This document shows, in pieces, positions 77-33,965 of a DNA stretch of 34,663 nucleotides. The position numbers and the translations under genes are program-made. This DNA is from Pseudomonadota bacterium (GTDB lineage Bacteria; Desulfobacterota; Desulfobaccia; Desulfobaccales; 0-14-0-80-60-11): positions 1-34,663 of the forward strand of contig JAHIKF010000156.1 of NCBI GenBank assembly GCA_018897875.1. The letters are read 5' to 3'. How positions within the stretch are numbered: the first letter of the stretch is position 1; each line of letters opens with the position of its first letter. A model generated the notes under the pieces. That model did not search any database. It saw nothing but the letters and a program-made list of their open reading frames with translations, and was not told where the DNA came from.

Positions 77-1453
77 CTACCAGTTGGTCCGCAGGCGGTA
101 TTTTTCGATCTTGTGGCTCAGAGTCTTGCGGTTGATCCTGAGGATGCGGGCGGCTTCCTGGCGCCGGCCCTTGGTGCGGCGCAGGATGAATTGAATGTAG
201 CGCTTTTCCAACTCCTCCAGCGAGTAGTTTTCATCCGAGAAGTCATGGAACTCGCCCTGACGCTGGGAAATGAAGCTCGGCAAATGTTCCGGCTGGATGA
301 CGGCCCCATCTTCCAGGATCACGATGCGCTCAATGGTGTGCTCCAGTTCCCGGACATTGCCCGGCCAGCCATAGTCTATGAACAATTTCAGGGCCTGGCT
401 GGAGATGCCGGTAATTTCCCGGTGGCCTTTCTGATTGTATTGGCGGAGAAAGTGATCCACCAGCAGGGCGATGTCCCCGGTGCGTTCCCTCAGAGGCGGT
501 AAGTGGATGGGAATGACGCTGAGCCGGTAGTAGAGGTCCTCCCGGAAGGCGCCCGCCTTGATGGCTTCCTTCAGGTCGCGGTTGGACGAGGCGATGATGC
601 GGATATCCAGTTTAATGCGTTTCTGGCTCCCCACCTGCATGAACTCCCGCTCCTGGATCACCCGCAGGAGCTTGGCCTGGATATTCAGGCTCAGGTTGCT
701 GATCTCGTCGAAGAAAAAGGTCCCGTGATTGGCCAGTTCGAAGAGCCCGTGTTTCGTCTGCAGGGCCCCGGTGAAAGAACCCTTGACGTGACCGAAAAGC
801 TCGCTTTCCAACAAGGTCTCCACCAGGGCGGAGCAATCCACCGGGACGAATTCCTGTCCGGCTCGCGGGCTGAGCAGGTGGATGGCCCGGGCCCCGAGCT
901 CTTTGCCGGTGCCGGATTCCCCGGTGAGCAGCACGGTGCTGTCGCTGGGCGCGGCCCGCTTGATCTTATCGAACACCCGCCGCATGGCGGGACTCTGGCC
1001 CAGAATAAAATCCAGGCCCAGGCCGCCGGCGGCTTCCGGTTCAGGTGCGACCGGCCGGTTTTTCTGGGCCAGGTGGTCCCGGGCCTTCTGTACCACCGCT
1101 TCCAGTTCCTCGATCCTAAACGGCTTGACCAGGTAGTCCAGGGCCCCGAGCCTGATACACTCTACCGCCCCGGCAATGGTGGGGTAACCGGTAATCATGA
1201 TGACTTCGGTGTCGGGAAAATCCTGACGGATATGTTTCAGCAACTGCATCCCGTCCATGTCCGGCAGCTTGATGTCCAGAAGGACGACGGCAAACGGCTG
1301 ACGGGCCAACTGGGCCAGCGCCTGGGTGGCGCCGGTTGCGGTGGTCACTGCAAGTCCCTGCGTGGTGAGCACCCGGGCGATGCCCTCGCGCAACGCGGCT
1401 TCATCATCCACCACCAGGATCTGCCGGTTTAAATCACTCCTTGGCATCCGCAC
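77..1453 (-). CDS. sigma54-dependent response regulator (NtrC family: receiver + AAA+ sigma54-interaction domain + Fis-type HTH)
   Basis: 458-aa ORF. Receiver motifs [25 protein letters not shown]. Walker [24 protein letters not shown] (GAFTGA-type loop), [10 protein letters not shown]-terminal [26 protein letters not shown]. Overlaps the upstream kinase gene by 20 nt. The start could instead be the Met at 1447. Confidence 0.9.
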
Positions 1454-2936
1454 CCTTTGCCGCGCCCACCGTAGGCAGCTTGACCCGGAAGGTGGTGCCC
1501 GCCCCGACTTCGCTGTCCACGTCCACCGACCCCCGGTGGGCCTCGATGAGCCCTTTGACCAGCGCCAGGCCTAACCCGGTCCCGATCACCTGCCGGGTCT
1601 TGGGGCTCTTGACCCGGTAGAACTTGTCAAAAATTTTGGAGATCTCCTCCGCCTCAATGCCGATGCCCTGGTCCTTCACCTCAACTTCCAGGTAGTCCCC
1701 GCGGGAGATGGCGGTAATCCTGACTTCGCCCCCATCCGGAGAGTAATTGATGGCATTGCTCACCAGGTTGCCGAACACTTCCTCCATGCTGCGGCGGTCG
1801 GCCTGGATGAGAGGCAGTCCGTCGGGCGCCACCAGCTTCAAGGTGACCTGCTGGCTGGCAGCCCTCTCCCGTAAGAGTTCCACCAGTTCGCCCAGAATTT
1901 CCGGCAAATTCAGCGGCACCTGCTCCAGTTGCCCGTAACCCGCTTCCATCTTGGCCACGTCCAACAGGTCGTTGATCAGGTCGAGCAAACCCTGGATCTT
2001 GGCATGGGCCCGGGTGAGCAGCTCCCGCTGCTTGGCGGTCAGATCCCCGGCCAAACCGTCCAGGATCACGGCATGCTGCTGCTTGATGGCGGCCAGGGGG
2101 GACCGGAGTTCGTGGGACACCATGCGCACGAAATCGTTCTTCATTTCATCCAGTTCTTTGAAGTGGGTGACGTCGTGGAATACGGTGACCGTGCCCAGCA
2201 CCTGGCTGTCCGGCCCGGAAAACGGGGCCGACAAGGCCCGCAGGTGAATGCGGTTTTGGCAAAGCTCCTGGGCGATAAACCGCGCCTCGCTCCGGCTGCC
2301 GCCCGCCAGCAGGGACTCGATGGCCACCTGAAAGTCGCGGTCGCCGACATAGGCCTGCACCGATCCGGGGTGAGGCGGCGGCGCCTGGACCCCCAAAAGC
2401 TGCATGAGGGTAGAGTTGCACAACACCACCTCGCCCTCCCGGTTGGTCACCAGCACCCCGTCGGCCATGCAGTTGACGATGGTGTGCATCCGGCTCTGTT
2501 CCATGGCCAGGTTGTAGAGGTTCCGGGCCTGCTCCTCCTGGAGCTGCCGGGTCTGCTGTTCCAGGAGATGCTTTTCCAGGGCCCGTTTGACCACCAAGAT
2601 GAGGTGGTCGATGCTGAAGGGCTTGGTGACGAAGTCATAGGCGCCCTTTTTCATGCACTCCACCGCGTCGGCCACAGTGCCCAGCCCGGTCATGATGATC
2701 ACCGGGATGCCGGGGTAGCGGACGGAGGTCTGCTCCAGGACCTCCAGGGCCCCCATCACCGGCATCTTCAGGTCGCAGAGGACCACGTTGACCAGCTCGG
2801 CGCCCAGTTTGTCCAGGGCCTCTTGGCCGTTGGCGGCCGTGAGCACCCGGTAGCCTTCGGGCTTGAGAACCAGGGTGCAACCATCCCGAAGCACCTTTTC
2901 GTCGTCCACCACCAATACGGTGTATTGGTCCGTCAT
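1434..2936 (-). CDS. hybrid two-component protein: N-terminal receiver + PAS + HisKA + HATPase_c
   Basis: 500-aa ORF. Receiver YTVLVVDDE...VVLCDLKMPVMG...FVTKPF. PAS-like middle region. H-box SHELRSPL, N-box NLVSNAINYS, G-boxes DQGIGI and GTGLGLALV. SD-like AAGGTG lies upstream of the ATG at 2936. Confidence 0.85.
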   Translation of the reverse strand: MTDQYTVLVVDDEKVLRDGCTLVLKPEGYRVLTAANGQEALDKLGAELVNVVLCDLKMPVMGALEVLEQTSVRYPGIPVIIMTGLGTVADAVECMKKGAYDFVTKPFSIDHLILVVKRALEKHLLEQQTRQLQEEQARNLYNLAMEQSRMHTIVNCMADGVLVTNREGEVVLCNSTLMQLLGVQAPPPHPGSVQAYVGDRDFQVAIESLLAGGSRSEARFIAQELCQNRIHLRALSAPFSGPDSQVLGTVTVFHDVTHFKELDEMKNDFVRMVSHELRSPLAAIKQQHAVILDGLAGDLTAKQRELLTRAHAKIQGLLDLINDLLDVAKMEAGYGQLEQVPLNLPEILGELVELLRERAASQQVTLKLVAPDGLPLIQADRRSMEEVFGNLVSNAINYSPDGGEVRITAISRGDYLEVEVKDQGIGIEAEEISKIFDKFYRVKSPKTRQVIGTGLGLALVKGLIEAHRGSVDVDSEVGAGTTFRVKLPTVGAAKGADAKE

Positions 2937-3031
2937 AATTCACCTTTTGATCAGCGGCCAGCTTCAGGAAGACCCTGGGGCTGCGCTATCTTGCTCATGG
3001 CTGATTGCCGACGGCTGACTGTTTGGCAGAC

Positions 3032-5344
3032 CTATTCCCAGTCCATCTGCTCCTGGTTTTCCTGAGCATCCAGGGGCAGTCTAATGGTGAAATCAGTGCC
3101 GCCACCGCGCGGGCTCTCCACCTCGATACTTCCGCCATGCCGTTGAATGACCCCATAGACGATGGATAGGCCCAGGCCGGTGCCTTTACCCGGAGGTTTG
3201 GTGGTAAAAAAGGGGTCAAAAATTTTATCCCGCAGTTCCGGTGGAATCCCACTGCCGGTATCCGCAAAAGTGATGATCACCCCATCTCTCTCAGGGGTAG
3301 CACAGCTGGTGATGGTGATCCTGCCCAGCCGGTTCATAGCGTCGGCGGCATTGAGCAGCAGGTTGGTAAAGACCTGCTGGAGTTCACCCGGATCGCCAAA
3401 AATCTGGGGCAGCTGGTGGTCCAGAGATAGTTTGATCTGGATATTTTGGAAAAGAAGCTGCTGGTCCATAAGCTTCACACACCGCGAGATGATTTCGTTT
3501 ATACTCAGGAGGGTTTTTTGCCCCAAAGACTGCCGGCTGAATTCCAGCAGGCGGGTGACAATTTGTTTACAACGCAGAGTTTGGTTGATGATTTCTTCTA
3601 TGTGGTCACGACCTGCGGCATTCGCCTCCATATGCCGCTGCAATAATTCAGCATAAATGAGGATGCCGGCCAGGGGATTATTGATTTCATGGGCCACCCC
3701 CGCGGCTAACTGCCCCAGGGAGGCAATCTTTTCAGCCTGCAAAAGTTGATTTTGGGTCTCTTCCAGTTTTTTTTGCATCCTTCGATGTTGGCGCAGGTCG
3801 GAAAAGATTCCGACGCTGCCGACTTCTTGCCCCTTGTCCCTGATAATCGCGGCCGAAAACCTCACCGGCACTTCCTCTCCATCTTTATTATAAAAGGTGA
3901 TCTCGGTGGTATTGAGTCGGTCAGGTTGACCGTATTCGCCACTGCGCATCCGGCGCATCATCTCTTTGGCCAATTCGAGCGGATAGAACCGGTGTAATCT
4001 TTTTCTATCGGCGATGACCTCCCCGGCCTGGTAACCCAGGATACGTTCGGCTCCTTCACTAAAAATTAAGGGGCTCCCTTTGGTGTCGATCACCACGATG
4101 CCGTCCACCGAACAACGGATTATATTGCTAAGAAAGATATTGGTTTTTTTAAGTTGTTCATGCATCCTGATGCGTTGGGTGAGGTCACGCAGGTAAATGC
4201 AGGTGAGAATATGTTTGCCGATCTGGGACGCCGCCATGCAGGTCTCGAAGACGCGGTTTTCCTCCGGGTGTATATACGTCCCGTTAAGGGTGGTGCAAAA
4301 TTGTACTTCTTCCTGGCGGTCTTGTTCTCCCATACTTGTCAGTTCCACCGCCATTTTATGATGCTGGGGGGTGAGGATTTCCTCCAGGCTCTTTCCGACC
4401 AGCTCCTCCTTGGACCGTCCGATTATTTCGGCCATCTTTGAGTTGGCAAAGATGATGCGCTGATTCTCATCAGCCATCAGCATGCCTTCTTGGGTCAACT
4501 CGGTGATCAAATCGAGCTTGCGTTCCGCCTCCACTATGGGAGTGATATCCCGAACCGCCTCAAAGCCGCCGATGACCCGGCCCTCGGGGTCGGTGATAAT
4601 GGAGGCGTAGACCGTCACCGGGACTTCCTGGCCGTGCCGGGTCCGCACTACCCGCCGCACCCCGGAGAAGGCCTTTTTCTGGAGCATAACCTGCTTGAGG
4701 ACGCAATCGGCGGTATTGCACTGGACGGTATTCAGCAACTCCCCGCAGGTCATGCGGCCCACCACCTCGCTCCGGGAGTAGCCGCTGAGCTTCTCCATGC
4801 GCTCGTTGAGGTGGGTGACCATTAGAAACGGGTCCACCATGAAGAAGGGTATGGGGAAATTTTCCAGGATGCTGGAGAGGGTCGCCATCTGCTGTGCCAT
4901 CACCGGGTGGGCCAGCAAATCGGCGTGCTCCCGGATGAGGATGAAACAGCCGGCCTTTTGGTTATCGGCGCCCCGGATGGGAGTGGCGCTGAGGGAGAGG
5001 GGGGCGCCCAGGGGCCACCGCGTCTTCAGCAGAACGGGCGCCTGCCGGTAGCTCTCCCCCAGCTGGGGGCACGGCTCGGGCCGGGAGGCGTCCTGGCCGG
5101 TCCCCTCAATAATGGCGGTTTTCGAACAGATGGGACAGGGGCCCCCCGGACGCAGGGACTCCCCAAAGAGTTTCTGTGCGGCGCAATTGAGAAAAACCAC
5201 CTCCCGGTCGCGGTTGGTGACCACCACCGGATCGGGGAACTCCTCCAGGAGCGGACCCAGGAACTCCACCGGCATGGCGGCGGCCCCGGTTAACGCCGGG
5301 GGCGCGTCAGGTCCGCTCGGGGGGGCATCGTGCTCTGATTTCAT
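3032..5344 (-). CDS. cytoplasmic multi-PAS sensor histidine kinase (about four PAS-like modules + HisKA + HATPase_c)
   Basis: The track ORF runs to 5440, but its first 32 codons read through an inverted-repeat element. The Met at 5344 (MKSEHD...) is preceded by GAGAAGGAAC (SD-like). H-box [12 protein letters not shown]-box [11 protein letters not shown]-boxes DTGSGIP and GTGLGLSIV. No hydrophobic TM segment seen. Confidence 0.85.
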
Positions 5345-5402
5345 GGTCCGTTCCTTCTCGCTGGCATAGAGCGAGAGATAAACTCGTTCCCGAGTTCCTG
5401 CC

Positions 5403-5580
5403 TTGAAAAGTGTCTCCGTAGGGTGCGTCCTACGCACCAACTAATCAGCGGAATTGGCGGGCAGTGCCCGCCCTACATATCTCTTCATCATTAGTGGCAC
5501 AGGCCTCTGGCCTGTGGGAAGCAGAGTATGACAGTGTAGCTATTGGTGCGTAGGACGCACCCTACGAAAGACTTTTCAGA
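5403..5580. repeat. MITE/REPIN-like element, about 180 bp, with terminal inverted repeats enclosing further GC hairpins
   Basis: 5417-5440 (CGTAGGGTGCGTCCTACGCACCAA) is the exact reverse complement of 5544-5567. The match extends outward through TGAAAAGT after a 4-5 nt divergent patch. Internal hairpins at 5457-5476 (GGCGGGCAGTGCCCGCC+CTAC) and 5497-5517 (CACAGGCC-tct-GGCCTGTG). No coding capacity. Confidence 0.5.
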
Positions 5581-7166: not shown

Positions 7167-8102
7167 TTAGGCCAACTGGGGTCTGGGAAAGAGGCCGCCC
7201 CGTTCCACGATTTCCCCGACTTTTTCTTCCCACTCGATGGCCATGATGTGGAAGCCCCGCACGCCTTCCACCTCTTTCAGTTCCTGGATCTGCTCCACCG
7301 CCAGGGTGAGGCCTTCTTCGGCCTGCTTTTCCTTGGGGACGCCGCCGATGCGCCTGATGATGTCGTCGGGAACATCTATGCCCGGGACCCGTTTCTGCAT
7401 GTACTTGGCCATGCCGACGTTTTTCATGGGGGTGATCCCGGCCAGGATGGCCACTTTTTCATGCAAACCCCGGTCCACCATCAGTTTCATGAACTCTTTG
7501 AACGTGTCCATGTTGTAGATGCACTGGGTCTGGATAAACTGCACCCCGGCCGCCACTTTCTTGGCCAGCCGGGACACCCGCATGGCCACGTTGGGCCCGG
7601 CGAAGGGGTTGGCCGCGGCGCCGATGTACATCTGGGGGCGCACCGCAAATTCGTGGCCGCCCAACAGCTTGCCCTCATCCCGCATCATCTTCACGGTCTG
7701 GATGAGCTGGATGGAATCCAGGTCAAAGACGTTGGCGCACTTGGGGTGGTCCCCGAAGTGCTGGTGGTCCCCGGTGAGGCAGAGTATGTTGTTGATGCCG
7801 AAGGAGGCCGCCCCCAGAATATCGCTCTGGAGGGCGATGCGGTTTCGGTCCCTGGTCACCATCTGGAGACAGGCCTCCAGCCCCATGAGCTTGAGGCGGA
7901 TGCAGCAGGCCAGGCTACAGACCCGGCACACCGACGTCTGGTTGTCCGTCACGTTGATGGCATCGACGTAATCCTTGATCAGGTTGCCCTTGTGCTCGAT
8001 CACGGCGCCATCGGCGCTCCGGGGCGGACCCACCTCGGAAGTGACCGCAAAGTTGCCCGAGTCGATCATCTTCTGCAGTTTGCTGGGAGTAGTCACACTC
8101 AT
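7167..8102 (-). CDS. metF: methylenetetrahydrofolate reductase, acetogen/Wood-Ljungdahl type
   Basis: 311-aa ORF. MTHFR-family motifs FAVTSEVGPP, INVTDNQ, ILCLTGDHQ, VQFIQTQCIY. The start overlaps the metV stop (ATGA-type coupling at 8099-8102). Confidence 0.9.
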   Translation of the reverse strand: MSVTTPSKLQKMIDSGNFAVTSEVGPPRSADGAVIEHKGNLIKDYVDAINVTDNQTSVCRVCSLACCIRLKLMGLEACLQMVTRDRNRIALQSDILGAASFGINNILCLTGDHQHFGDHPKCANVFDLDSIQLIQTVKMMRDEGKLLGGHEFAVRPQMYIGAAANPFAGPNVAMRVSRLAKKVAAGVQFIQTQCIYNMDTFKEFMKLMVDRGLHEKVAILAGITPMKNVGMAKYMQKRVPGIDVPDDIIRRIGGVPKEKQAEEGLTLAVEQIQELKEVEGVRGFHIMAIEWEEKVGEIVERGGLFPRPQLA

Positions 8103-8767
8103 ATCCGTAAATCCTCTCTGACGATGGTGCGCGGCCCGCCGTCCCGGGAAGTGCTCCAGTCTTTGGGATCCACGGGTTTTTCAAAGCGGTCCAGTTGCCC
8201 CAGGGTTTTCAGCCGTTCATAGATCAGCTCCCAGCCGCAGGGGATATCTTTGTTGATTTCGCACTTGCCCGCATCAGAGCCGCCGCAGGGGCCGTTGAGC
8301 ATGCGCTTGGAACAGCGGGCGATGGGGCAGATGCCGCCGGTCTCGGCCAGGATGCAGCGGCCGCACGCCTGACAGCGCTCGACATAGAGCCCCCGCTCCT
8401 CGTTGACCCCCAAAAAGCAGGTGTCCACCCCGGGGTAGATGATTTTGTTGTTATACATCTCCGCCATGTACTGGACCCCGCAGCCGCAGGCCAGGGAGAC
8501 CACGGCGTCATAGATGTCCATCTTGTCGGAGAGTTGCGCCAGATATTCCTTTTCGCACTGCCGAGTCAGGCTGGTTTCGTCAATCTGGGCCTGCTTGCCG
8601 GCCTGGGTGAAGTAGAGCCTGAGAGCCGAAGCCAGCACCTTGGCTTCTTTCATGCCGCCGGCTTCGCACACGGTAACGCAACCGTCGCAACCGACAATCA
8701 GCACTTTGGTGAAGTCTTTGACCTGGCCGAGGACTTCTTCCAACGGTTTGGGCACTGCCTTTATCAT
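8099..8767 (-). CDS. metV: MetV: Cys-rich MTHFR C-terminal-domain-like partner subunit of MetF
   Basis: 222-aa ORF with the hallmark ICPIARCSKRMLNGPCGG motif plus further Cys clusters (GCDGCVTVCE, CQACGRC). The start overlaps the mvhD stop (ATGA at 8764-8767). Confidence 0.85.
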   Translation of the reverse strand: MIKAVPKPLEEVLGQVKDFTKVLIVGCDGCVTVCEAGGMKEAKVLASALRLYFTQAGKQAQIDETSLTRQCEKEYLAQLSDKMDIYDAVVSLACGCGVQYMAEMYNNKIIYPGVDTCFLGVNEERGLYVERCQACGRCILAETGGICPIARCSKRMLNGPCGGSDAGKCEINKDIPCGWELIYERLKTLGQLDRFEKPVDPKDWSTSRDGGPRTIVREDLRI

Positions 8768-9219
8768 GTGGTTACCTCCGCAATTGGCCCGGTGGCCTTG
8801 CCTGTCGCAACTCTGATGGGACTGGGACCCAGTTCCATTATTTTTTCAGTGATCTCCCGGACAATCTCGGCGAACCGCCCTCCCATCCCGGAAGACAGAT
8901 TATACATCGCCAGCCGTTCGCCGCCGACGCCGACTTTGTCCAGGATCTCTTTCACCCGGTTGACCCGTTTTTTGGCGTACAGATTTCCGGCGCTATAGTG
9001 GCAGTCTCCCTCCAGGCAGCCCACCACGATGACCCCGTCGGCCCCGTACTCAAACGCCATCAGCAGGTGCATAATATCCACCTTGCCGGTGCAGGGTACC
9101 TCGATGATGCGCACGTTGGGCGGGTACTGCAATCGCATCGAACCTGCCAGGTCCGCGGCGGAATAAGCTCAGTAGTGGCAGCAAAACCCGACAATCTTCG
9201 GCTCAAACGATTCCATCAT
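8764..9219 (-). CDS. mvhD: MvhD-like (methyl-viologen-reducing hydrogenase delta subunit family) protein with in-frame TGA at 9169-9171 read as selenocysteine
   Basis: The track ORF (8764-9138) starts inside the conserved MvhD N-terminus. Reading the same frame upstream gives ATG ATG GAA TCG TTT GAG CCG AAG ATT GTC GGG TTT TGC TGC CAC TAC TGA GCT TAT TCC GCC GCG GAC CTG GCA GGT TCG ATG, i.e. MMESFEPKIVGFCCHY-U-AYSAADLAGSMRLQYPPNVRII. This matches the family pattern FEPKIV.F.CNWCSYAGADLAG..R.QYPPN.RII, with TGA at the second Cys. A strong SD (TGAGGAG) sits 5 nt before the ATG at 9219, just after the hdrL stop at 9228. Confidence 0.8.
9139..9155 (-). other. candidate SECIS-like hairpin downstream of the mvhD UGA
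   Basis: The mRNA sequence CGGACCU-GGC-AGGUUCG forms a 7-bp stem including one G-U pair, starting 13 nt after the UGA. The position fits a bacterial SECIS, but the 3-nt loop is small and no covariance model was run. Confidence 0.3.
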
Positions 9220-9227
9220 CGGACTCC

Positions 9228-12200
9228 TCAGTATAAGGTTTTGATCTTGGCGCTGATCTGGTCGTCTTCAAAATGGGCCACCTGGATGACCTTGGCCGGA
9301 CATTCCGAGGCGCAGGTGCCGCAGCCCTGACACAGGGCCTCGTTGATCTCCGAGACGTTGTCCCGGTTGATCTGCGGGATGCCGTAAGGACAGGTCCGGA
9401 CGCACACCAGGCAGGCGGCGCACCGGTCCGGCTCCACATGCGCAGTGACCCCGCTGATGGTCTGGTTGACGTCCGCCAGGAACGCCCCGGCCCGGGCCGC
9501 CGCGGCCATGGCCTGGGCGATGCTCTCGCCGATAAGCTTGGGCGAATGCGCCATGCCGCACAGGAAGATGCCTTCCGAGGCAAAATCCACCGGCCGCAGC
9601 TTGGCGTGGGCCTCGATGAAAAACCCGTCGGCGTTCCGGGGGATTTTCAGGAGCGAGGCCAATTCCTCGGTATCATTGGCCCGGGCCCCGGCGCTCAACA
9701 CCACCGCGTCCACGGCCATGCTCACCGGGCGCTCCAGCACATGATCCACAAAGGTGACGCTCAACTGGCCGTTGTCATTAGTAACCTGGGGCAAACGGTC
9801 CGGATCGAACCGGGAAAAGAGCACCCCCTTGTCCCGGGCCTCCCGGTAAAAATCCTCCAGGAACCCATAGGTGCGCATGTCCCGGTAGAGGATCACCACG
9901 TCCATGTCGGGGTTGAGTTCCTTAAGCTGCAAGGCGTACTTCACCGCCCCCTGGCAGCAGATGCGGCTGCAGTTGGGGCTCTCCTCATTCCGGGAGCCCA
10001 CGCACTGCACCATGACCACCCGGTCCCACTTGGCGGCTTCATCCTTCGTTTTATGGAGAAAATCGCCCAGTTCCAATTGGGTCATCACCCGCGCGTGTTC
10101 CCCGTAGAGAAATTCCTTGGGGTGATACTCATGGGCGCCGGTGGCCACCACGGTGATCCCGTGGTCGATTTTCCGCTCGTACATGCCGGGCCCCACCAAA
10201 ACTTCGGTGGTGAAGTTGCCTTTGTAGCCGCTAAACCCCACCACCAGGGCCCCGGTGAGCACCTGGATCTTGGCGTGGCCCTTGACCCGCTCGATGAGCC
10301 CGTCCAGGTAGGCCTGAACGTCCAGGCCCTCGATAGTCTTGTGGACCCGGCGGCCTATGCCGCCCAACTGCGGCTCTTTCTCCAGGAGGATGGTCTCGAA
10401 TCCCTGGTCGCCCAGATTGAGGGCGGCGTTGAGGCCGGCGATGCCGCCGCCGATGACCAGGGCCCGCTGGTTGATGCTCAGGGGCTTTTCCAGCAACGGC
10501 TTGAGCAGGGAGGCCCGGGCCACCGCCATCCGCACCAGGTCTTTGGCCTTGTCCGTGGCCTTGTCGTGCTCCTTCATGTGCACCCATGAATCCTGGTTGC
10601 GGATGTTGGCCATCTCAAACAGATATTTGTTCAGGCCGGCGTCGATCAACGTATCCCGGAACAGGGCCTCGTGGGTGATGGGGGTGCAAGCCGCCACCAC
10701 CACCCGGTTGAGGTTGTGTTCCTCGATGATCCGGGTCATGGTGACCTGGGTGTCCTGGGAGCAGGTGAACAGGTTGTCTTCCACGTACGCCACGTTGGGC
10801 AGCGTCTTGGAGTATTCCGCCAGCGCCGGCACGTCTATGATACCGCCGATGTTGATGCCGCAGTTGCAGACGAACACCCCGATGCGTGGGGCGTCCTCCG
10901 GTTTGATGTCCTTGGGTGTGGGCGCCTGCCGGGTCTTGGTCTCGGTCCAGCGGACGTCCCCCAAAGAGGCGCTCACCGCCCCGGCCGCGGCGGATGCCTG
11001 CATGACCGATTCGGGAATGTCTTTGGGACCCTGCATGGCCCCGCAGACATAGATGCCAGGACGGCTTGCCGTCACCGGCGCCAAGGGCGAGGTGGCCACA
11101 AAATCGTGAGCGTTGGTCTCCACCTTCAGGGTCGCAGACAACTCCCGGGCGCCCTGGCTCACCTCCATGCCCACGGACAGCACGATCAGGTTAAAGGCCT
11201 CGGTCTTCTCGGCGCCGCTTTCATCCACAAACCGGATCTGCAAATCACCATCCGGCAAGGGATCGATGCTGTGGATGCGGGACCGGATAAACCGCACCCC
11301 GTGTTCGTCTTTGGCGCGGTTATAGTAGAGTTCGAAGTCTTTGCCGTAGGTCCGCATGTCCATGAAAAAGATGGCGGCGTCCAGCGGATACGGCGCGTGC
11401 TCCTTGGCGATCACCGCCTCTTTGATGGCGTACATGCAGCAGACCGAGGAGCAGTAGGTGTGGTATTTAACATCCCGGGAGCCCACGCATTGGAGCCAGG
11501 CGATCTTCTTGGGCTCGGCGTGGTCCGAAGGCCGGACCAGGTGGCCGCCGAAGGGCCCGGAGGCCGAGAGAATCCGCTCGAACTCCAGGGAGGTCACCAC
11601 ATTGGGCAAACTGGAGTAATGGTAAGTCTCGCACTTGACGGGACTGAAGGCCTCAAATCCCGGCGACAGGATCACGGCCCCCACCTGAACCTCTTTGGTT
11701 TCGGCGGCCATGGTGTGGTCGATGGCCCCGGCCTGGCAGGCGACGACGCACTGCATGCACTCGGAGCAGACCCCGCAATTGAGGCATCTCGCCGCCTCCC
11801 GCTGGGCCTGGTCCTCGGTGTAACCCTGGGCAATTTCATCAAAGCAGGCGCAGGTATGCTCCGGCGGCAGGGCCGCCATCACTTCCCGGGGCGCGCCGGT
11901 TTCATCTTTGGGAATCTCGGCCCAGCGTTTGTGGGCCTCCTCGCCGATGGCGCGGCCCTCAACCATGTCCACACGCCTAAGATAGCGGTCGATGGATTCC
12001 GCGGCTTCGATGCCGCCTCCCACCGCTTCGATGGCAATCCAGGGGCCGGTGTGCACATCGCCGGCGGCAAAGACCCCGGGCCGGGAGGTCTCGTAGGTTA
12101 CTTCATTGACTTCAATGGTGCCCCAGCGGCTCAGCTTGACGCCGCAGGCCGCTAAAGGCCCCTGGGCCGCTTCCTGGCCGATGGCCGGCACCACCATGTC

Positions 12201-13724: not shown

Positions 13725-14597
13725 CTATAAACCGGCCGCCGCCAGGATCGACGGTAGTTTGTCCTCCCACCCGATGGTGGAGACGAGCACTCCCGGGAAT
13801 CCCTGCTTTTTGACCGCAGCCAGGAATTCCGAGGCGATCTGCACACACTCCCGCACCCGGTCGGAGCTTTTATGAATCCGGGTGACGAAAGCTTCCGGGA
13901 TTTTCATCTCCATGTGGGCGTTGATGTAGCGGGCCATGCCCACACTCTTCAAGAGCATAACCGTGGGGATGATGGCCGCCTGGCGCTTGCCCACCTGATG
14001 CCGGAAATTTTTCAGAACTTCCACGTCGAAAACCGGCTGGGTGGTGAAAAACCGGGCCCCGGCGGCAATCTTTTGATCCAGGTCCGCCAACTCCTGCTTC
14101 AAGGCTCCGGCCTCGCTGGTCACCTTGACGGTGGCGCCCACCAGGAATTGCGGCGACCCTTTGAGATCCACCCCGGCCAGGTCCCGGCCGGTCTGCAAGG
14201 TTTGAATGGCCGCCAGCAAGTCCAGGAGATTTAGGTCGTTAACCGCCTTGGCCTGATGATGGTCGCCATGGGTGATTTCATCGCCGGACACCACCATGAC
14301 ATTGGCAACCCCCAGGGCCTGCGCCGCCAACAGGTCGCCTTGCAGCGCCAGGCGGTTGCGGTCCCGGCAGCAGACCTGCAGCACCGTTTCCAGCCCCTTG
14401 GTCTGCAACAGGAGCGCCCCGCCCAGAGAACTCAAGCGCATCACGGCGTTGTTCATCTCCGGGACCACAAAGGCGTCCACCATGCGTTTGACGCTGGTGG
14501 CGGCTCCCACCATGTCGGAAACATCCGTGCCTTTGGGCGGCTCGATCTCCGCCAGAATGACGAATTCGCCGGAAGTCAATTTCTCTTGTAATGGCAT
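13725..14597 (-). CDS. second methylenetetrahydrofolate reductase family paralog, with no adjacent MetV-like partner
   Basis: 290-aa ORF. MTHFR-like FVILAEIEPPKG, QVCCRDRNRLALQGDLL, VMVVSGDE, RFFTTQPVF. Clearly diverged from the 311-aa metF at 7167-8102. Confidence 0.85.
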   Translation of the reverse strand: MPLQEKLTSGEFVILAEIEPPKGTDVSDMVGAATSVKRMVDAFVVPEMNNAVMRLSSLGGALLLQTKGLETVLQVCCRDRNRLALQGDLLAAQALGVANVMVVSGDEITHGDHHQAKAVNDLNLLDLLAAIQTLQTGRDLAGVDLKGSPQFLVGATVKVTSEAGALKQELADLDQKIAAGARFFTTQPVFDVEVLKNFRHQVGKRQAAIIPTVMLLKSVGMARYINAHMEMKIPEAFVTRIHKSSDRVRECVQIASEFLAAVKKQGFPGVLVSTIGWEDKLPSILAAAGL

Positions 14598-14615: not shown

Positions 14616-15035
14616 TTATTGGGATGATCGCACCATGGCGTTCGAGATAGCTAAAATCAGATCATCCGGGCCAAAGGAGTTCACATGATAGTAAAAAATC
14701 CCCTGTTGCCGGATACGGCTTTCCTGTTCCGGATTGTTTTCATCCGCAGTAATGATGATGGGCAGCTTGCGGTCCAGGCCCTTGATGATGGAGATGGCCT
14801 CGTAACCCATATCTTCCGGCAGGCGCACATCCATGACCAGCACATTGATCTTTTCACTCTGCAGGGTCATGAGCAGGTCTTTGATGTTGTCCACGGCTTT
14901 GAGCCGGTGTCCCTGTTCGGTGACCCAGAAATCCAGATTCTGCGACAAGGCCCCGCCGCGTTCGGCGATCAACAGTGTGCCACCCTTTTCCGTCATCATT
15001 GGCGTCCCGGAATTCCCGAACCGAGTTACTGCCAC
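14616..15035 (-). CDS. degenerate (pseudo-)receiver domain protein, first gene of the operon
   Basis: Receiver-like fold: VLVMDVRLPEDMG keeps the Asp and PIIITAD keeps the Thr. The N-terminal acidic pair is replaced (LLIAERGG) and the conserved Lys position reads YHVNSF. The start is ambiguous: GTG at 15035 has no SD, and the ATG ATG at 14999 has only a weak SD. Confidence 0.6.
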   Translation of the reverse strand: MAVTRFGNSGTPMMTEKGGTLLIAERGGALSQNLDFWVTEQGHRLKAVDNIKDLLMTLQSEKINVLVMDVRLPEDMGYEAISIIKGLDRKLPIIITADENNPEQESRIRQQGIFYYHVNSFGPDDLILAISNAMVRSSQ

Positions 15036-20511: not shown

Positions 20512-22242
20512 ATGCGCCGCCTCGCTACCTTTTGCCTCCTCCTGGGTTATCTTCTCTGCGGCTGCGGCCAAAACGCCGCGGCGCCGGCAGGGGCCTTTCC
20601 GCCCTTTTATCCCGAGGCGCAGCCCTTTCGGAGCGCCATTGGCCTGACCAAAAACACTCCCTTGCCCCTTCGCATCACCGGTCTGACCGTGCCGCATCAC
20701 CTGCTGGCCGCCGACCTCATCGCCGACGCCTTCGCCCTGGCCTCCGGCCAGGCTTACCGGCGGATCATTATCCTCAGCCCCGATCACTTTGAACGGAGTT
20801 CGACGCCGTTCGCCGTAGCCATACGCAACTTTCAGACGGTCATGGGCGAGGTCCCCATCGATGCCGCCGCCGTAGACATCCTCCGGGAAAACCCCCTGGT
20901 GTCGGCGTCCAATCTCTTTTCCCACGAACATGGCGTCCGGGCGCTTCTGCCGTTTGTGGCGCATTATTTTCCCGGCGCCTGGGTCGTGGCCGTGGCGATA
21001 CACCGGGACAGCCAGCCCTCCCAGTGGGATTCCCTGGCCCAAACCATGGCCCCGCTCCTGACCTCCGACACCCTCGTGCTCCAAAGCACGGACTTTTCAC
21101 ACTACCTCCCCTGGCCCCAGGCCCGGCGGCATGACCAGGAAACCCTGCGGGTCCTGAGCGCCGGCGACCCCGACGCGGTACTCGGCCTCAAGCAACCGCA
21201 GCATCTGGATTCCCGGGGGGGCCAATACCTCCAGCTCCGGCTCCAAAAACAGGTGCATCAGGCCCGGCCAACGGTGATGGCGTCCCGCAACTCTCAGGAA
21301 TATACGGCCCAGCCGCTTGAATCCACCACCAGCTACCTGGTCCAGGTCTATAGCCCCGAAAACCTGCTTGTTCACGGGGTCCAGAGGTTCTTCTTCGCCG
21401 GCGACACCTTCTTTGGCCGCTACCTGGCCGCCAAACTGGCCCGGCAGCCGTGGCGGGAGGGGCTGGTCAAACGGGTGCGGCAGCTCACCGGCGGCGCCCC
21501 CCTCATCGTCAACCTGGAAGGCGTCGTGATGGCCCAGTGCCCTGCCGACCCCGGCCCCCTGAAGTTGTGCATGGCCGCCCGCCCGACCCTGGATATACTC
21601 CGGGACCTCAACGTGGTGGCGGTGAGCCTGGCCAACAATCACACCCATGACTTCGGCGAGTCTTCCTACCGCACCATGCAGCGCCTCCTTATCGATGCCG
21701 GCATCACCGGGCTGGAACACGGCACCGTGAAAGATCTGGGGCCTTTCCAATTGGCCGCCGCAACCGACCTGGACAACCGGGAAAAACCCGTGCGGGCCTT
21801 GCTCACCGATGCCGATCTGCGCCGCTTCGATGCCATGCCGCCGGACAAGCCCCGCTTCGCCTTCCTGCACTGGGGCCAGGAGTTCACGGCCACCCCCGGC
21901 CCCCGGGAACAGGCCCTGGCAGCCAGGCTCAACGCGGGAGGCGTCGAACTCATCATCGGCAGCCATCCCCACCGGGCCGGCGCTCTCTACGGCGACCGCC
22001 AGCTGTGCCTGGTCTACTCCCTGGGCAACTTCATCTTTGACCAGCGCCGGCCGGAGGTTTCCGGGGCCCTTCTGGAAGTCATTTTCTTCCCCCAGGGAAC
22101 GTATTTTCTGCGGCTACACCCCCTGGGCAATCTCTATGAGGAAAATTTTTCGGCCCGCCAGGATACCGCGCCTTTCTCTCAGGTCACCGCGCTGCGCCTA
22201 TCCGGCTGGGGCCAGGAATCAAGAGCTTATCTCAATAAGTAA
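20512..22242 (+). CDS. secreted/lipoprotein fusion: MEMO/LigB-superfamily-like N-terminal domain + CapA (PGA_cap, metallophosphatase-like) C-terminal domain
   Basis: 576-aa ORF. Signal peptide with a lipobox-like LLCGCG. N-domain LTVPHHLLAADL...RIIILSPDHF...FSHEHG. C-domain FFFAGDTFFGRY, VNLEG, VSLANNHTHDFG, FLHWGQEF, LIIGSHPHR, YSLGNFIFDQ (CapA family pattern). Confidence 0.8.
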   Translation: MRRLATFCLLLGYLLCGCGQNAAAPAGAFPPFYPEAQPFRSAIGLTKNTPLPLRITGLTVPHHLLAADLIADAFALASGQAYRRIIILSPDHFERSSTPFAVAIRNFQTVMGEVPIDAAAVDILRENPLVSASNLFSHEHGVRALLPFVAHYFPGAWVVAVAIHRDSQPSQWDSLAQTMAPLLTSDTLVLQSTDFSHYLPWPQARRHDQETLRVLSAGDPDAVLGLKQPQHLDSRGGQYLQLRLQKQVHQARPTVMASRNSQEYTAQPLESTTSYLVQVYSPENLLVHGVQRFFFAGDTFFGRYLAAKLARQPWREGLVKRVRQLTGGAPLIVNLEGVVMAQCPADPGPLKLCMAARPTLDILRDLNVVAVSLANNHTHDFGESSYRTMQRLLIDAGITGLEHGTVKDLGPFQLAAATDLDNREKPVRALLTDADLRRFDAMPPDKPRFAFLHWGQEFTATPGPREQALAARLNAGGVELIIGSHPHRAGALYGDRQLCLVYSLGNFIFDQRRPEVSGALLEVIFFPQGTYFLRLHPLGNLYEENFSARQDTAPFSQVTALRLSGWGQESRAYLNK

Positions 22243-22267
22243 CCTGACCGGAGGTTATGACCACCCC

Positions 22268-23053
22268 ATGAAAAAAATCGGATTGGCGCTGGGTTCGGGC
22301 GGAGCCAAAGGAATCAGCCACATAGCTTTTCTCAAGGCCCTGGATGAATTGGGCGTGCGGCCGGCGGTCATCGCCGGTACCAGTATTGGGGCCGTCATCG
22401 GCGGCTTTTATGCCGCCGGGGTCTCCGGGGCTCGGCTGGAGCAACTGCTCAAGGAAATCGGTTTCCGGGACCTCTACAAGATTGTCCTGGACTTCTCCAT
22501 TCTGAGCCAGTCCGCCATCTTCACCGGCAAAGGCGTGGAAGATTTTCTCTCCCGTGAGATTCCGGCCCGCACCTTCGAAGAAATGGAGATTCCCTTTAAA
22601 GTCGTAGCCACGAATTTTTGGGACCGCGGCCAGGTGGTATTCGAAAGCGGCAGCCTCACCAACGCCATCCGGGCCTCCATGGCCATGCCGGCAGTATTCG
22701 AACCGGTGCGCCTCAACGACATGGTCCTGGTTGACGGCGGCGCAGTGAACCCCTTGCCTTACGACCTCATTCAATCGCAGTGTGATCTGACCATTGCCAT
22801 TGATGTCTCCGGCGAAAAGACCTATGCCCCGGGTAATCCGGTCCCCAATATGGTGGAAAGCATCCTGTCCACCTTCCAGATCATGCAAGCCTCCATTGTG
22901 GAGGCCAAGAGGAAACTGTTGCCGCCGGATATCTATGTCAAACCGGCTTTGACCAATATCCGGGTGCTGGACTTTTACCGCTATAAAGCAATCCTGGCGG
23001 GAGTGCAGGAAGAAGTGCAACGCTTTAAGGAAGACTTGCAAAACCTGCTTTAG
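22268..23053 (+). CDS. patatin-like phospholipase (RssA-type)
   Basis: Start at MKKIGLALGSGGAKG (oxyanion GGxK/R), nucleophile elbow GTSIGA, catalytic Asp in LVDGGAVNPLP. GGAGG lies upstream. The longer track ORF (from 21809) overlaps the preceding gene in another frame. Confidence 0.9.
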   Translation: MKKIGLALGSGGAKGISHIAFLKALDELGVRPAVIAGTSIGAVIGGFYAAGVSGARLEQLLKEIGFRDLYKIVLDFSILSQSAIFTGKGVEDFLSREIPARTFEEMEIPFKVVATNFWDRGQVVFESGSLTNAIRASMAMPAVFEPVRLNDMVLVDGGAVNPLPYDLIQSQCDLTIAIDVSGEKTYAPGNPVPNMVESILSTFQIMQASIVEAKRKLLPPDIYVKPALTNIRVLDFYRYKAILAGVQEEVQRFKEDLQNLL

Positions 23054-24781: not shown

Positions 24782-26977
24782 TCACACTTTACCCCCTTTG
24801 CACATGATTCCCCTCATCTGATGATGCCCGTTGAATTCTTCGAATGGAGGGCCATCCGAAATGATCGTATTCACGTTGTATTCGTAGATGCCGTGATCCG
24901 GACTGGTGATCTCCGGGTACCACCATCCTTGAGAAATGGAGACCACATGGGGGTGCATTTCAGGCACAAGGCGGGCCTTGCCCTTTACCCTCTCTCCCTT
25001 CATCTGGTAGGACTCCAGCCACATCCAGTCCCCTTCTTTGATACCCAGGCCTTGAGCTGTCTGGGGATGGACCTCGATCTCAGGCTCAGAGGCCAGCTTC
25101 CGTAATGATGGACAATCAAATCGTTCCGAATTTTGATAGAACCGGAGCCGGTGGTGCACCATGATGAGGGGATATTCTTTCCAGATATCAGGTCTGCTCA
25201 GAGGGCTCACCGGGTCTTCCCGGTAATTGGGCAGCGGGTCGTAATTTAGTTTTTTAAACCAATACGAATAAAGTTCAACCTTACCTGTGGGGGTATTCCA
25301 TTTCCAACCAGGAAGTTCATATTTTTTAAAGTCCATTGGGAATATCATTTGGTGTTGGGGCTGCGCCATGAGCTCTTGATATGTGGTCCCGACAGGCTCA
25401 AGCATCCAGTCGTGGAACTCCTCTATGTTTTCCCATGGAACATCTGCCCCCATCCTCTTGCCCAGCTCAATGACGATTCTCATATCGTCCCAGGCCTCGC
25501 CCGGAGGGTCGACCACTTTCGGGCATGCTACGATGCTGTTCCCATAGGGAGCCCCGGGCGCCCCACTTAGCGTGTGATTGAGGGAGTCGATCTCGGCTGC
25601 GTGCGCTGCAGGCAGCACCAAGTCAGCAACTTCGCATGTTGGCGTCATGAAAAGATCGGCCACTACCATGAAGTCAAGTCCCTTGAGGATATTCCACAGC
25701 CTTTTGGGGTTGGCGTAATGCGCCATAGGATTGGTGCCGGGGACGTAGAGCCCTCGCACTTTCCCCTCTTCCATATACTCCAGGAGCGTCGGGTAGTGAC
25801 TGTTGTAGTCGAACCAGCTGATCTCCTGGGGGCCATTGTAGATAGGGTAATCTCTGTAGCCGGGCCTCTTGGCCTCCAAGTCGGGCGACCGGCGCCAGTT
25901 GCGCATCATCCAATAGATGTTTCTAAACCCGTTGAGAGTACCGTTTAGATACTCCCTAGGCCCAAGGGCGGCGGCCGTGGGAATATCTCCCGGTGTGTGA
26001 AGGATGTTTCCTCCGACGGAATCCAGATCCCCCTTGATGCTGAATATGCATGTGATGGCCCGGCAAGTCTGTGTGGAATTGAGGGATTGGCCGTCCACGC
26101 CCAGCCGGGTATGAATGCACGAGGGCCGCGTCCTGCCGTATAGCCTCGCAGCCTCGATGATCTGCTCCTTAGGCACCCAGGTAATTTGTTGAGCCCGCTC
26201 TGGAGTCCACTCGGCCACCCTTTGCTTGAGTTCCTCAAAGCCGAGGCACTGCTGAGCTACGAATTCTCTATCGTAAAGACCTTCCTCGATCATCACGTTG
26301 AGCCAGGCTAGGGCCAGGGCGCCGTCCGACTGAGGCCGAACCCTGAGCCACATGTCCGCCCTCTTAGCGGTCTCTGTGAAACGGGGATCGATCACAATCA
26401 CCTTGGCCCCCCTTTTCTGGGCCTCAAAGATGCGCCTCGCCTTGACGGGCCGGGTATCAACCACGTTGGCGCCCCAGATGACGATGCACTTGCTGTTCTC
26501 GTAATCGATCCGGGTCTCCCAGGTGGTCCATTCTCCAAAGGTCATGAAATCGGAGATGCAGCTGCACTGAGAGCACTGGTAGTTGGCATCCAGGATGTTG
26601 GGAGTGTTCAGGAACTTTGCCAAGGAGTGGCTGGCGTCACAGGTTCTTTCCTTGTGGTGGGAGGATATTCCAACGCAGTTTGCCTCAGGACCAAAGCGGT
26701 CCCTGATGTCGGCAAATTTGCCGGCCATAAGATCCAGAGCCTCATCCCAGCTAATCCGAACCCATTTGCCAGTTCCCTTTTCCCCCGTGGCCTTTAATGG
26801 GTATTTGAGCCGGCGGGGATGATGTAGGGTTTCAGCCATATAAAGGCCTTTTTCACACCCGGGATGCAAAACCTTCGCAAGCTGGCCATCCTTGACCTTG
26901 CACTCCAGAAAGCATCTCTCATGGCAGACTTGACAAACGGTCTCCACAGTAGCGGTAAATTTATTATTTCTGTCCAT
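24782..26977 (-). CDS. cytoplasmic molybdopterin/tungstopterin-guanine-dinucleotide enzyme (DMSO-reductase/MopB superfamily), acetylene-hydratase-like clade
   Basis: 731-aa ORF with a perfect SD (GGAGGTGATC). N-terminal [4Fe-4S] motif CQVCHERC...C and no twin-arginine signal. Several blocks resemble my recollection of Pelobacter acetylenicus acetylene hydratase: LYDREFVAQQCLGFEELKQRV, PTGKVELYSYWFKKLNYDPLPNYREDP, KEYPLIM, HPQTAQGLGIKEGDWMWLES. Monocistronic. Confidence 0.85.
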   Translation of the reverse strand: MDRNNKFTATVETVCQVCHERCFLECKVKDGQLAKVLHPGCEKGLYMAETLHHPRRLKYPLKATGEKGTGKWVRISWDEALDLMAGKFADIRDRFGPEANCVGISSHHKERTCDASHSLAKFLNTPNILDANYQCSQCSCISDFMTFGEWTTWETRIDYENSKCIVIWGANVVDTRPVKARRIFEAQKRGAKVIVIDPRFTETAKRADMWLRVRPQSDGALALAWLNVMIEEGLYDREFVAQQCLGFEELKQRVAEWTPERAQQITWVPKEQIIEAARLYGRTRPSCIHTRLGVDGQSLNSTQTCRAITCIFSIKGDLDSVGGNILHTPGDIPTAAALGPREYLNGTLNGFRNIYWMMRNWRRSPDLEAKRPGYRDYPIYNGPQEISWFDYNSHYPTLLEYMEEGKVRGLYVPGTNPMAHYANPKRLWNILKGLDFMVVADLFMTPTCEVADLVLPAAHAAEIDSLNHTLSGAPGAPYGNSIVACPKVVDPPGEAWDDMRIVIELGKRMGADVPWENIEEFHDWMLEPVGTTYQELMAQPQHQMIFPMDFKKYELPGWKWNTPTGKVELYSYWFKKLNYDPLPNYREDPVSPLSRPDIWKEYPLIMVHHRLRFYQNSERFDCPSLRKLASEPEIEVHPQTAQGLGIKEGDWMWLESYQMKGERVKGKARLVPEMHPHVVSISQGWWYPEITSPDHGIYEYNVNTIISDGPPFEEFNGHHQMRGIMCKGGKV

Positions 26978-32453: not shown

Positions 32454-33965
32454 ATGAACGACCTAAACCTGCTGTACGAAATTACCGAAACCCTGGGCTC
32501 CCTTGGCCCATTGCCCCGCATCCTGCAACGGGTGCTCCAGATTTTGGCCCAGAGCATGGGCATGCGCCGGGGCACCGTCACCATCCTCAACCCGGAGACC
32601 GCGGAATTGCAGATCGAAGTGGCCCACGGCCTCACGGCGGAAGCCCGGCGCCGGGGGCGCTACAAGCTGGGGGAAGGCATCACCGGCCGGGTGGTGGAGA
32701 CCGGGGAACCGGCGGTGGTCCCCCGGGTGAGCAAAGAGCCGCTCTTTTTAAACCGGACCCGGTCCCGGGGCAGCCGGGAGAAGGACGAACTCTCCTTCCT
32801 GTGCGTGCCCATCAAAATTAACAACAAGACCATCGGCGCCCTCTCCGTGGACAAACTCCACCGGGACCTGGACCTGGACCGGGACCTCAGGCTGCTCACC
32901 ATCATCGCCTCTATCATCGCCCAGACGGTCAACAACCTGCTGCTCATCGACCGGGAGAAGGAACGCCTGCACAACGAGAACGTGAAGCTCAAAGGCCAGT
33001 TGCAGGAGCGTTACCAGATGGGCAATATCATCGGCACTTCGGGGCGCATGCGCGAGGTGTTCGAGATGATCGAACGGGTGGCCAAGAGCAACGCCACCAT
33101 CCTGATCCGGGGCGAATCCGGCACCGGCAAGGAGATGGTGGCCTCGGCCCTGCACTATAACTCGCTGCGGGCCGACAAGCCCTTCATCAAGGTAAACTTG
33201 GCGAGTCTGCCGGAGACCCTGGTGGAGAGCGAACTCTTCGGCCACGAGCGCGGGGCCTTCACCGGGGCCATGCAGCGCAAGCAGGGCCGCTTCGAACTGG
33301 CCCAGGGGGGTACGATCTTTCTGGATGAAATCGGCGACTTGAGCCTTAATGTGCAGCTCAAACTCTTGCGGGTCATCCAGGAACGCGAGTATACCCGCTT
33401 GGGCGGCACGGCCACCTTAAAGGCCGACATACGCCTGCTGGCAGCCACCCACCGGGATCTGGAGCAGGCCATGTCTCAAGGGGTTTTCCGGGAAGACCTC
33501 TACTACCGCCTCAACGTCTTTCCCATCTATCTGCCACCCCTCCGGGAGCGCATGGCCGACATCCCGGCCCTGTCGGAATACTTCCTAAACAAGTACGGTG
33601 AGGAGCACGCCAAGCCGGTGAAGCGCCTGTCGGCCCCGGCCCTGGACCTGCTCATGCAGTACCCCTGGCCCGGCAACGTGCGGGAACTGGAAAACATCAT
33701 CGAGCGGGCGGTGCTGGTGTGCGACGAAGACACCATCTTAAGCGTCCACCTGCCTCCCACCTTACAGCGCCAGGAGCCGGGCGGGGACCACCGGGGTCTG
33801 GCCGCCCAGGTGGCGCACCTGGAGCGGGAACTCATCACCGAGGCCCTGCGCCAGACCCGGGGCAACCAGAGCCAGGCGGCCCAAATCCTGGACACCAGCC
33901 TCAGGATCCTGGGTTACAAGATCAAGCAGTACGCCATCGAAGCCAAACGGTTCCGGGCGACGTAA
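32454..33965 (+). CDS. sigma54-dependent transcriptional activator with N-terminal GAF domain (NifA-like architecture: GAF + AAA+ + Fis HTH)
   Basis: 503-aa ORF. GAF-like N-terminus ([23 protein letters not shown]...[14 protein letters not shown]...[17 protein letters not shown]). [59 protein letters not shown]. No receiver domain. Confidence 0.9.

Follow-up and report, generated by a model that had tools for sequence, protein, structure and literature searches.

The mvhD reading frame and its interruption

The window analyzed here is the whole 34,663-nucleotide (nt) stretch of contig JAHIKF010000156.1, and its reverse strand carries a block of genes in the order hdrL-mvhD-metV-metF (Table 1). 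The gene of interest is mvhD, coding for an adaptor protein of the MvhD/FlpD family, in which the reading frame is crossed by an in-frame UGA that very probably encodes selenocysteine (Sec). On that strand the frame stays open from two consecutive ATG codons (9219-9214) to a stop at 8764, with the TGA at 9171-9169 as the sole internal stop; translated from 9219 it reads MMESFEPKIVGFCCHY, then the stop, and then AYSAADLAGSMRLQYPP onward. The UGA is residue 17 if the first ATG is taken as the start and residue 16 if the second is. The peptide predicted across it is IVGFCCHY-U-AYSAADLAGSMR, and the product with Sec is predicted to be about 16 kDa. The translation thus agrees with the first-pass annotation, made from the sequence by a model, on the extent of the frame and on its only interruption. 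The mechanical list of open reading frames (ORFs) likewise bears it out that the annotated ORF begins at the Met at 9138, since Met28 opens a 124-aa ORF there (8764-9138).

An extension of 27 codons hidden upstream of this Met had been proposed, preceded by a strong Shine-Dalgarno sequence right after the hdrL stop and 5 nt from the start. The extension is real, but it probably comprises 26 codons, because the second ATG (9216-9214) alone is conserved: 68 of 81 distinct sequences have an ATG at codon -15. The coding signature upstream of the UGA also starts at this codon. The second ATG is most likely the start of mvhD, which then has about 150 codons, and the first ATG (9219-9217) is a possible start in this window. 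The GAGGAG sequence does exist; it overlaps the hdrL stop TGA (9230-9228) at the junction ACTGAGGAGTCCGATGATGG instead of following it, and its distance is 4 nt, not 5, to the first ATG and 7 nt to the second. An A/GGAG motif is kept at the same place in relatives.

Table 1. Features of the mvhD locus and the genes adjoining it
Feature	Position	Strand	Basis or remark
mvhD, full coding sequence	8764..9216	-	translation; FlpD PF02662 match; conserved ATG at codon -15
Shine-Dalgarno GAGGAG of mvhD	9224..9229	-	overlaps hdrL stop
In-frame UGA, probable Sec codon	9169..9171	-	TGA/Cys column in relatives
Probable bacterial SECIS (selenocysteine insertion sequence) hairpin	9139..9155	-	CGGACCU-GGC-AGGUUCG, within A-D-L-A-G-S codons
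Internal Met codon, taken as start by gene callers	9136..9138	-	ORF list; public 124-aa calls
hdrL, upstream gene without Sec codon	9228..13682	-	1484 aa; Pfam and PDB matches; Cys codons at motifs
metV (DUF5981, C-terminal-like part of methylenetetrahydrofolate reductase, MTHFR), downstream	8099..8767	-	start overlaps mvhD stop (ATGA)
metF (methylenetetrahydrofolate reductase)	7167..8102	-	last gene of the hdrL-mvhD-metV-metF block

Conservation of the UGA codon

Related loci were collected from 49 species-representative genomes, mostly metagenome-assembled genomes (MAGs) labelled Desulfobaccales or Syntrophobacterales plus Desulfobacula and Desulfobacterales, and from 80 metagenome contigs. 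Among these 129 loci the codon at the UGA site was TGA in 89, TGC or TGT in 39, and TAA or TAG in none. About 80 of the 89 TGA sequences are distinct, and they come from many independent MAGs and metagenomes; TGA was present in all 46 of the 46 genome loci carrying the motif. Upstream of the UGA, the residues F, P, C and C are invariant with third positions free to vary, and codons +1 to +4 after it keep their amino acids with third positions that vary as well. The conservation of the UGA is far beyond chance, and coding selection acts on both sides of it.

These patterns bear directly on the gene model chosen by gene callers, in which the TGA is a true stop that ends a 16-residue upstream peptide, MvhD is initiated separately at Met 9138, and the conserved nucleotides before this Met form an internal ribosome-binding site (..CAGGUUCG AUG). 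An AGG does lie 5 nt before the AUG, and the AUG is invariant in the TGA forms. Such a stop is nevertheless very unlikely: codons +1 to +4 behave as translated codons, the 15 upstream codons retain the N-terminus of FlpD with its invariant residues, and the 89 sequences are all TGA and never TAA or TAG. Moreover, the short product would be devoid of the first 23 positions of the family profile and, with these, of the CC..C cysteines that every homolog retains.

An interrupted frame could also stem from an error in sequencing or assembly, or from recent decay into a pseudogene, and breaks resembling frameshifts are present elsewhere in the operon at some long-read MAG loci (L038, L046 and L048). 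That the identical TGA codon recurs in 89 sequences from many independent MAGs and metagenomes, under purifying selection on both sides, leaves this explanation with hardly any probability at all. In the three long-read MAGs themselves (MFD...) it is the mvhD/metV alignments that break in a frameshift-like manner, as in ..QYPPGCAHYRG... of L048, and these breaks look like assembly indels rather than biology.

The metagenome contig FWPV01026158.1 (locus L050) carries two mvhD paralogs about 520 nt apart, at ~1027 and ~1548, with TGA in one and TGT in the other at the Sec/Cys codon. By analogy with Vhu/Vhc, the Sec and Cys copies may back each other up.

A hairpin in the coding sequence

TGA terminates 11 of the 24 well-supported genes of the window, including hdrL and mvhD themselves, by which an alternative genetic code was ruled out. 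TGA is an ordinary stop in this genome, and a local recoding signal is therefore required. The 7-bp hairpin that had been noticed 13 nt after the UGA was found as described, at 9155-9139, and it occurs once in the window.

The 17 nt that form it, GCGGACCTGGCAGGTTC (also written GCGGACCUGGCAGGUUC), are invariant, including the third codon positions. The third-position entropy was compared between 79 distinct Sec-type and 38 Cys-type sequences. At codon +5 (Ala, GCG) it was 0.10 bits in the Sec-type against 1.93 bits in the Cys-type; over the next four codons it fell to 0 throughout the Sec-type sequences, as compared with 0.93 bits at +6 (Asp, GAC), 1.15 at +7 (Leu, CTG), 1.84 at +8 (Ala, GCA) and 1.83 at +9 (Gly, GGT) in the Cys-type. 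The Cys-type sequences encode an identical A-D-L-A-G yet vary freely at the synonymous sites. Relatedness is controlled for in this comparison, because the flanking Ala codon (+4) is as variable in the Sec-type (1.93 bits) as in the Cys-type (1.89 bits). A constraint at the RNA level is specific to the UGA forms.

Absence of a conserved structure 3' of the UGA would have spoken against recoding, and the hairpin is kept at 6-7 bp in 68 of 70 distinct relatives, 52 of them with 7 bp, as in the window, and 16 with 6 bp; the corresponding sites of the Cys forms usually make just 2-4 of the 7 pairs. The element also conforms on every point to the consensus for bacterial SECIS elements as summarised in PMC13188914. 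This consensus calls for 3-9 nt in the apical loop and 4-16 bp in the upper stem, for a G at one or both of the two leading positions of the loop, for a distance of 16-37 nt from the UGA to the loop, and for a minimum free energy (MFE) of -7.5 kcal/mol or lower. Here the GGC loop of 3 nt, invariant in 70 of 70, is carried on a stem of 7 bp; the 13-nt spacer plus the 7-nt stem arm place it 20 nt from the UGA; and the computed energy amounts to -8.2 kcal/mol over the 24-nt hairpin and -13.6 kcal/mol over 39 nt.

A lower stem of 3 bp was predicted in the window as well, but it was dropped, since the third position of codon +3 and the Arg codon (CGN/AGR) vary among relatives. The Met codon at 9136-9138 (codon +11) abuts the 3' end of the hairpin, and it is ATG in 79 of 79 Sec-type and 25 of 38 Cys-type sequences.

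The completed MvhD domain

The domain tests were made on the full-length mvhD product of 151 aa with the UGA translated as Cys. It matches the Pfam FlpD/MvhD family PF02662 with 170.4 bits, where the gathering cutoff is 22.3, and its residues 9-131 cover positions 1-123 of the 123-position profile. On the NCBIfam VhuD model the full-length protein spans positions 1-131 of 132, and the called 124-aa ORF spans only 24-131, so that the N-terminal 23 profile positions are missing from it. The extension thereby restores the N-terminus of MvhD, as had been claimed from its translation. With the VhuD model NF045873 the score was 162.1 bits, below the curated cutoff of 215, and the window protein is thus a family relative and not a VhuD equivalog.

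In the alignment with 11 full-length Cys-type homologs, the cysteines C13, C14, C17, C43, C68 and C73 are invariant. All six positions are found in the window protein, position 17 being the UGA, and C13, C14 and C17 fall in the hidden extension. The Cys-type homologs read FCC[HY]YCAY[ST]AADLAG in this region and an archaeal locus reads FLCNWCSYAGADLAG, with the motif CNWC. The UGA is consequently located where it had been placed, at the second Cys of a CxxC motif: the window has C14-H-Y-U17, as opposed to C-x-x-C in the 39 Cys-type loci and the 11 database proteins. The 11 full-length Cys-type homologs all include this N-terminus with its invariant Cys.

The open frame, the complete domain, the alignment of the UGA with Cys and the conservation of the UGA are all observed.

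The residue in known MvhD-type proteins

The alignment to both Cys- and Sec-type homologs, suggested as a check, put the UGA in the column of the invariant Cys and in that of a non-standard residue in an archaeal structure. In the VhuD chain 9sfi_K (family match with E 1.8e-40) the residue exactly at the UGA column is recorded as X, in FVCYQ-X-GYGAADLAG as compared with FCCHY-U-AYSAADLAG of the window protein, and from the VhuD literature we infer that X is Sec. In the MvhD of M. marburgensis (chain 9sw2_D) the same column is Cys16. Recent structural papers describe the residue as an additional conserved Cys adjoining the [2Fe-2S] cluster, not as an ordinary cluster ligand, and suggest that it may help to pass electrons to the bifurcating flavin. 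The hypothesis of these papers is that it participates in thiol/selenol redox chemistry beside the cluster.

MvhD/VhuD is indeed a known selenoprotein family in methanogens and deltaproteobacteria, as had been stated. MvhD/VhuD (PF02662) appears among the CxxU selenoprotein families of a recent review, in which the archaeal example contains two Sec. A 2006 survey ranked the family, under the name FrhD (PF02662), as the third most frequent bacterial selenoprotein family; Syntrophobacter fumaroxidans had 8 copies and Syntrophus aciditrophicus had 4. In Desulfobacterium autotrophicum HRM2 four Sec-mvhD genes were reported (mvhD1, 2, 3 and 5), and mvhD genes follow every hdrA and hdrL except hdrA4. 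A preprint on the class II benzoyl-CoA reductase of Geobacter describes the Cys near the [2Fe-2S] cluster of MvhD as Sec19 in the MvhD-like BamF.

Comparison with these systems reveals both common and distinct features. Archaeal VhuD, like the window protein, belongs to the FlpD fold family and is a [2Fe-2S] adaptor bound to an HdrA-type flavoprotein. It differs in having a second Sec at the column of the window Cys68, in a SECIS element that is located in the 3' untranslated region instead of inside the coding region, and in its partner, which is a hydrogenase and not HdrL with MetVF. BamF of Geobacter metallireducens is, by the statement of the preprint, a bacterial MvhD homolog with Sec for the cluster-adjacent Cys, as proposed here for the window protein. 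Its partner BamE is a rearranged and duplicated HdrA-like protein, and HdrL of the window has two sets of HdrA segments and two CVGSR..CSxxCC motifs. BamF, however, is more than 100 residues longer with extra domains, and it serves aromatic-ring reduction and not methylene-tetrahydrofolate (methylene-THF) reduction. In D. autotrophicum, as in the window, a UGA-containing mvhD lies directly downstream of hdrA or of hdrL, the latter a fusion of HdrA and glutamate synthase; there hdrL1 and hdrL3 are themselves selenoprotein genes, whereas HdrL of the window is all-Cys. The operon of the window also runs on into metV-metF, unlike the Sec-MvhD cases of D. autotrophicum, Syntrophobacter and Syntrophus.

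Probable reading of the UGA as selenocysteine

Judged from sequence comparison, mvhD is very probably a selenoprotein gene with its UGA read as Sec and the hairpin as the signal. Following the known bacterial mechanism, the UGA at 9171-9169 would be recoded when the coding-sequence hairpin 13 nt downstream recruits SelB-GTP-Sec-tRNA(Sec) to the ribosome. The predicted product would be a complete MvhD/FlpD [2Fe-2S] adaptor with Sec in place of the extra conserved Cys near the cluster, and the gene order suggests that it would relay electrons between HdrL and the MetVF methylene-THF reductase.

Several results weigh against this interpretation. The stability of the hairpin was not significant when compared with shuffled sequences (z = -1.18 for 39 nt), and the fold of 76 nt gave z = +0.60 with an MFE structure that differs from the hairpin; the 39-nt fold does yield it. 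There is no covariation, the stem being invariant in the 70 distinct relatives save for the outermost pair and two singletons. A search with Rfam at gathering thresholds returned no match in the whole window, and at the locus, with E <= 10, it returned chance-level hits to unrelated families only. No tRNA, and hence no tRNA-Sec, was detected by ARAGORN in the 34.7-kb window, and SelA, SelB and SelD were not found in Pfam scans of 28 ORFs. Beyond the window no further sequence was gained: the public contig with the protein of the right-hand edge stops at the same point as the window, and the protein of the left-hand edge has no public record. Because the thermodynamics of the hairpin are not significant, the argument for a recoding signal rests on the comparative data. 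Because the stem is invariant, compensatory changes are not available, and support comes instead from the freeze of the synonymous sites as compared with the Cys forms.

The machinery not being observed within the window would be consistent with a selenium-free readthrough of the UGA, in which near-cognate or reassigned decoding places, for example, Cys or Trp at the codon. Reassignment conflicts with TGA as the end of 11 of the 24 window genes. The hairpin of bacterial SECIS type is frozen in the TGA forms only, and Sec has been reported at the matching position in characterised members of the family; selenium-free decoding is accordingly regarded as very improbable, and insertion of Sec is retained as the preferred reading.

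In a six-frame mechanical screen of the window for other TGA-interrupted genes, only mvhD was credible. A molybdopterin oxidoreductase of 731 aa is encoded at 24782-26977 (-); it shows no in-frame TGA split, and it is therefore not a Sec-type formate dehydrogenase. Nothing relevant on selenoproteins of Desulfobacca or Desulfobaccales was found in the literature searched.

The hdrL-mvhD-metV-metF operon

The first-pass annotation held that MvhD alone would carry Sec in this operon, because the motifs of the neighbouring HdrL use Cys codons. The codon check agrees: both CVGSR...CSxxCC motifs of HdrL and its CSMC pair C70/C73 use Cys codons, which leaves MvhD as the sole selenoprotein candidate of the operon. 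By match coordinates against 9sfi_A only, C70/C73 map to the Sec site of HdrA (Sec197 of M. maripaludis). HdrL itself is a mosaic, in which HdrA-type segments at residues 22-164, 637-853, 930-1108 and 1340-1481 are permuted in order and an NfnB/GltD-like NAD(P)H module is inserted at ~169-648. In this it recalls the fused HdrA dimer reported for BamE of Geobacter.

ATGA overlaps at both the mvhD/metV and the metV/metF junctions point to translational coupling. Of the 88 Sec-type loci, 74 share the order hdrL-mvhD-metV-metF, as do 20 of the 38 Cys-type loci, the 38 being Cys-only and the contig with both forms being counted as Sec; most of the remaining loci are without one or more of the flanking genes and are often short. 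Adjoining metV/metF and an HdrA-type gene, mvhD is placed as in the MetFV-HdrABC-MvhD clusters of acetogens (Moorella, Sporomusa type), which likewise combine an HdrA-type gene, mvhD, metV and metF. The closest Cys-type homologs include proteins of Moorella, Desulfosporosinus and Thermanaeromonas at 65-72% identity. The MvhD proteins of acetogens carry Cys at the UGA column, unlike that of the window. No HdrB/HdrC-type domain was found by Pfam among the window ORFs scanned; where the acetogen clusters have hdrB/hdrC, the HdrA of the window is fused to the NfnB/GltD-like NAD(P)H-binding module. By analogy with these clusters, and from gene order only, MvhD likely passes electrons between the HdrA-type flavoprotein and the reductase of methylene-THF.

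A second gene of the MTHFR family (290 aa, 13725-14597, -) is located directly upstream of hdrL, so that two MetF-like genes flank hdrL-mvhD-metV. It is preceded by a response-regulator gene at 14616-15035 (-).

Annotation of Sec-type mvhD in public data

ORF callers had been expected to truncate the gene, and the public calls of 122-124 aa confirm it. The exact 124-aa call is present in GCA_022013585.1 and three metagenomes, with a gap of 89 nt left after hdrL. Among the matches listed, the protein-database hits above ~80% identity are fragments of 122-128 aa without the N-terminal cysteines, including the redox-active position, and identity does not exceed 73% for the hits of 140-201 aa, which cover 87-99% of the query; the 11 long hits retrieved all have Cys at the UGA column. 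As a result of the fragment calls, metabolic reconstructions of Wood-Ljungdahl sulfate reducers and syntrophs carry a broken MvhD and miss a requirement for selenium.

Knowledge of selenoproteins as such is unaltered, as earlier work had already described the family, the position of the Sec and the way in which the UGA is recoded. To a specialist the finding will be of low surprise, because Sec-MvhD ("FrhD") has counted among the recognised families of bacterial selenoproteins since 2006. What is new is a mis-annotated Sec-mvhD in uncultured lineages where gene callers systematically cut it, and it would add a bacterial case linked to MetVF in which the extra conserved Cys beside the [2Fe-2S] cluster of MvhD is replaced by Sec.

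The MAGs in which the Sec form occurs carry the labels Desulfobaccales, Syntrophobacterales, Syntrophales, Desulfobacula and Desulfobacterales. A broader proposal, that Sec-MvhD defines a dedicated, order-spanning variant of HdrL-MvhD-MetVF with its own class of SECIS, is speculative and appears rather unlikely. If it were true, the selenol near the [2Fe-2S] cluster might perform the hand-over from one-electron to two-electron transfer to the bifurcating flavin. The Sec and Cys forms in the same context, together with the paralogs of L050, would then be a natural bacterial Sec/Cys pair for testing the mechanism, and the 17-nt invariant SECIS with its GGC triloop would be a distinct and very constrained class usable as a gene probe.

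Other genes of the window

Signalling genes are dense in the window, including those at 77-5440 (-) and 32454-33965 (+). The set comprises two sigma-54 activators, two PAS/histidine-kinase hybrids, and single-domain response regulators beside the metF operon. Elsewhere, the Memo-like/PGA_cap ORF at 20512-22242 (+) and the patatin-like ORF at 21809-23053 (+) overlap by ~430 nt. The patatin domain begins only at residue 159, and the start of the patatin-like ORF is for that reason probably located further downstream.

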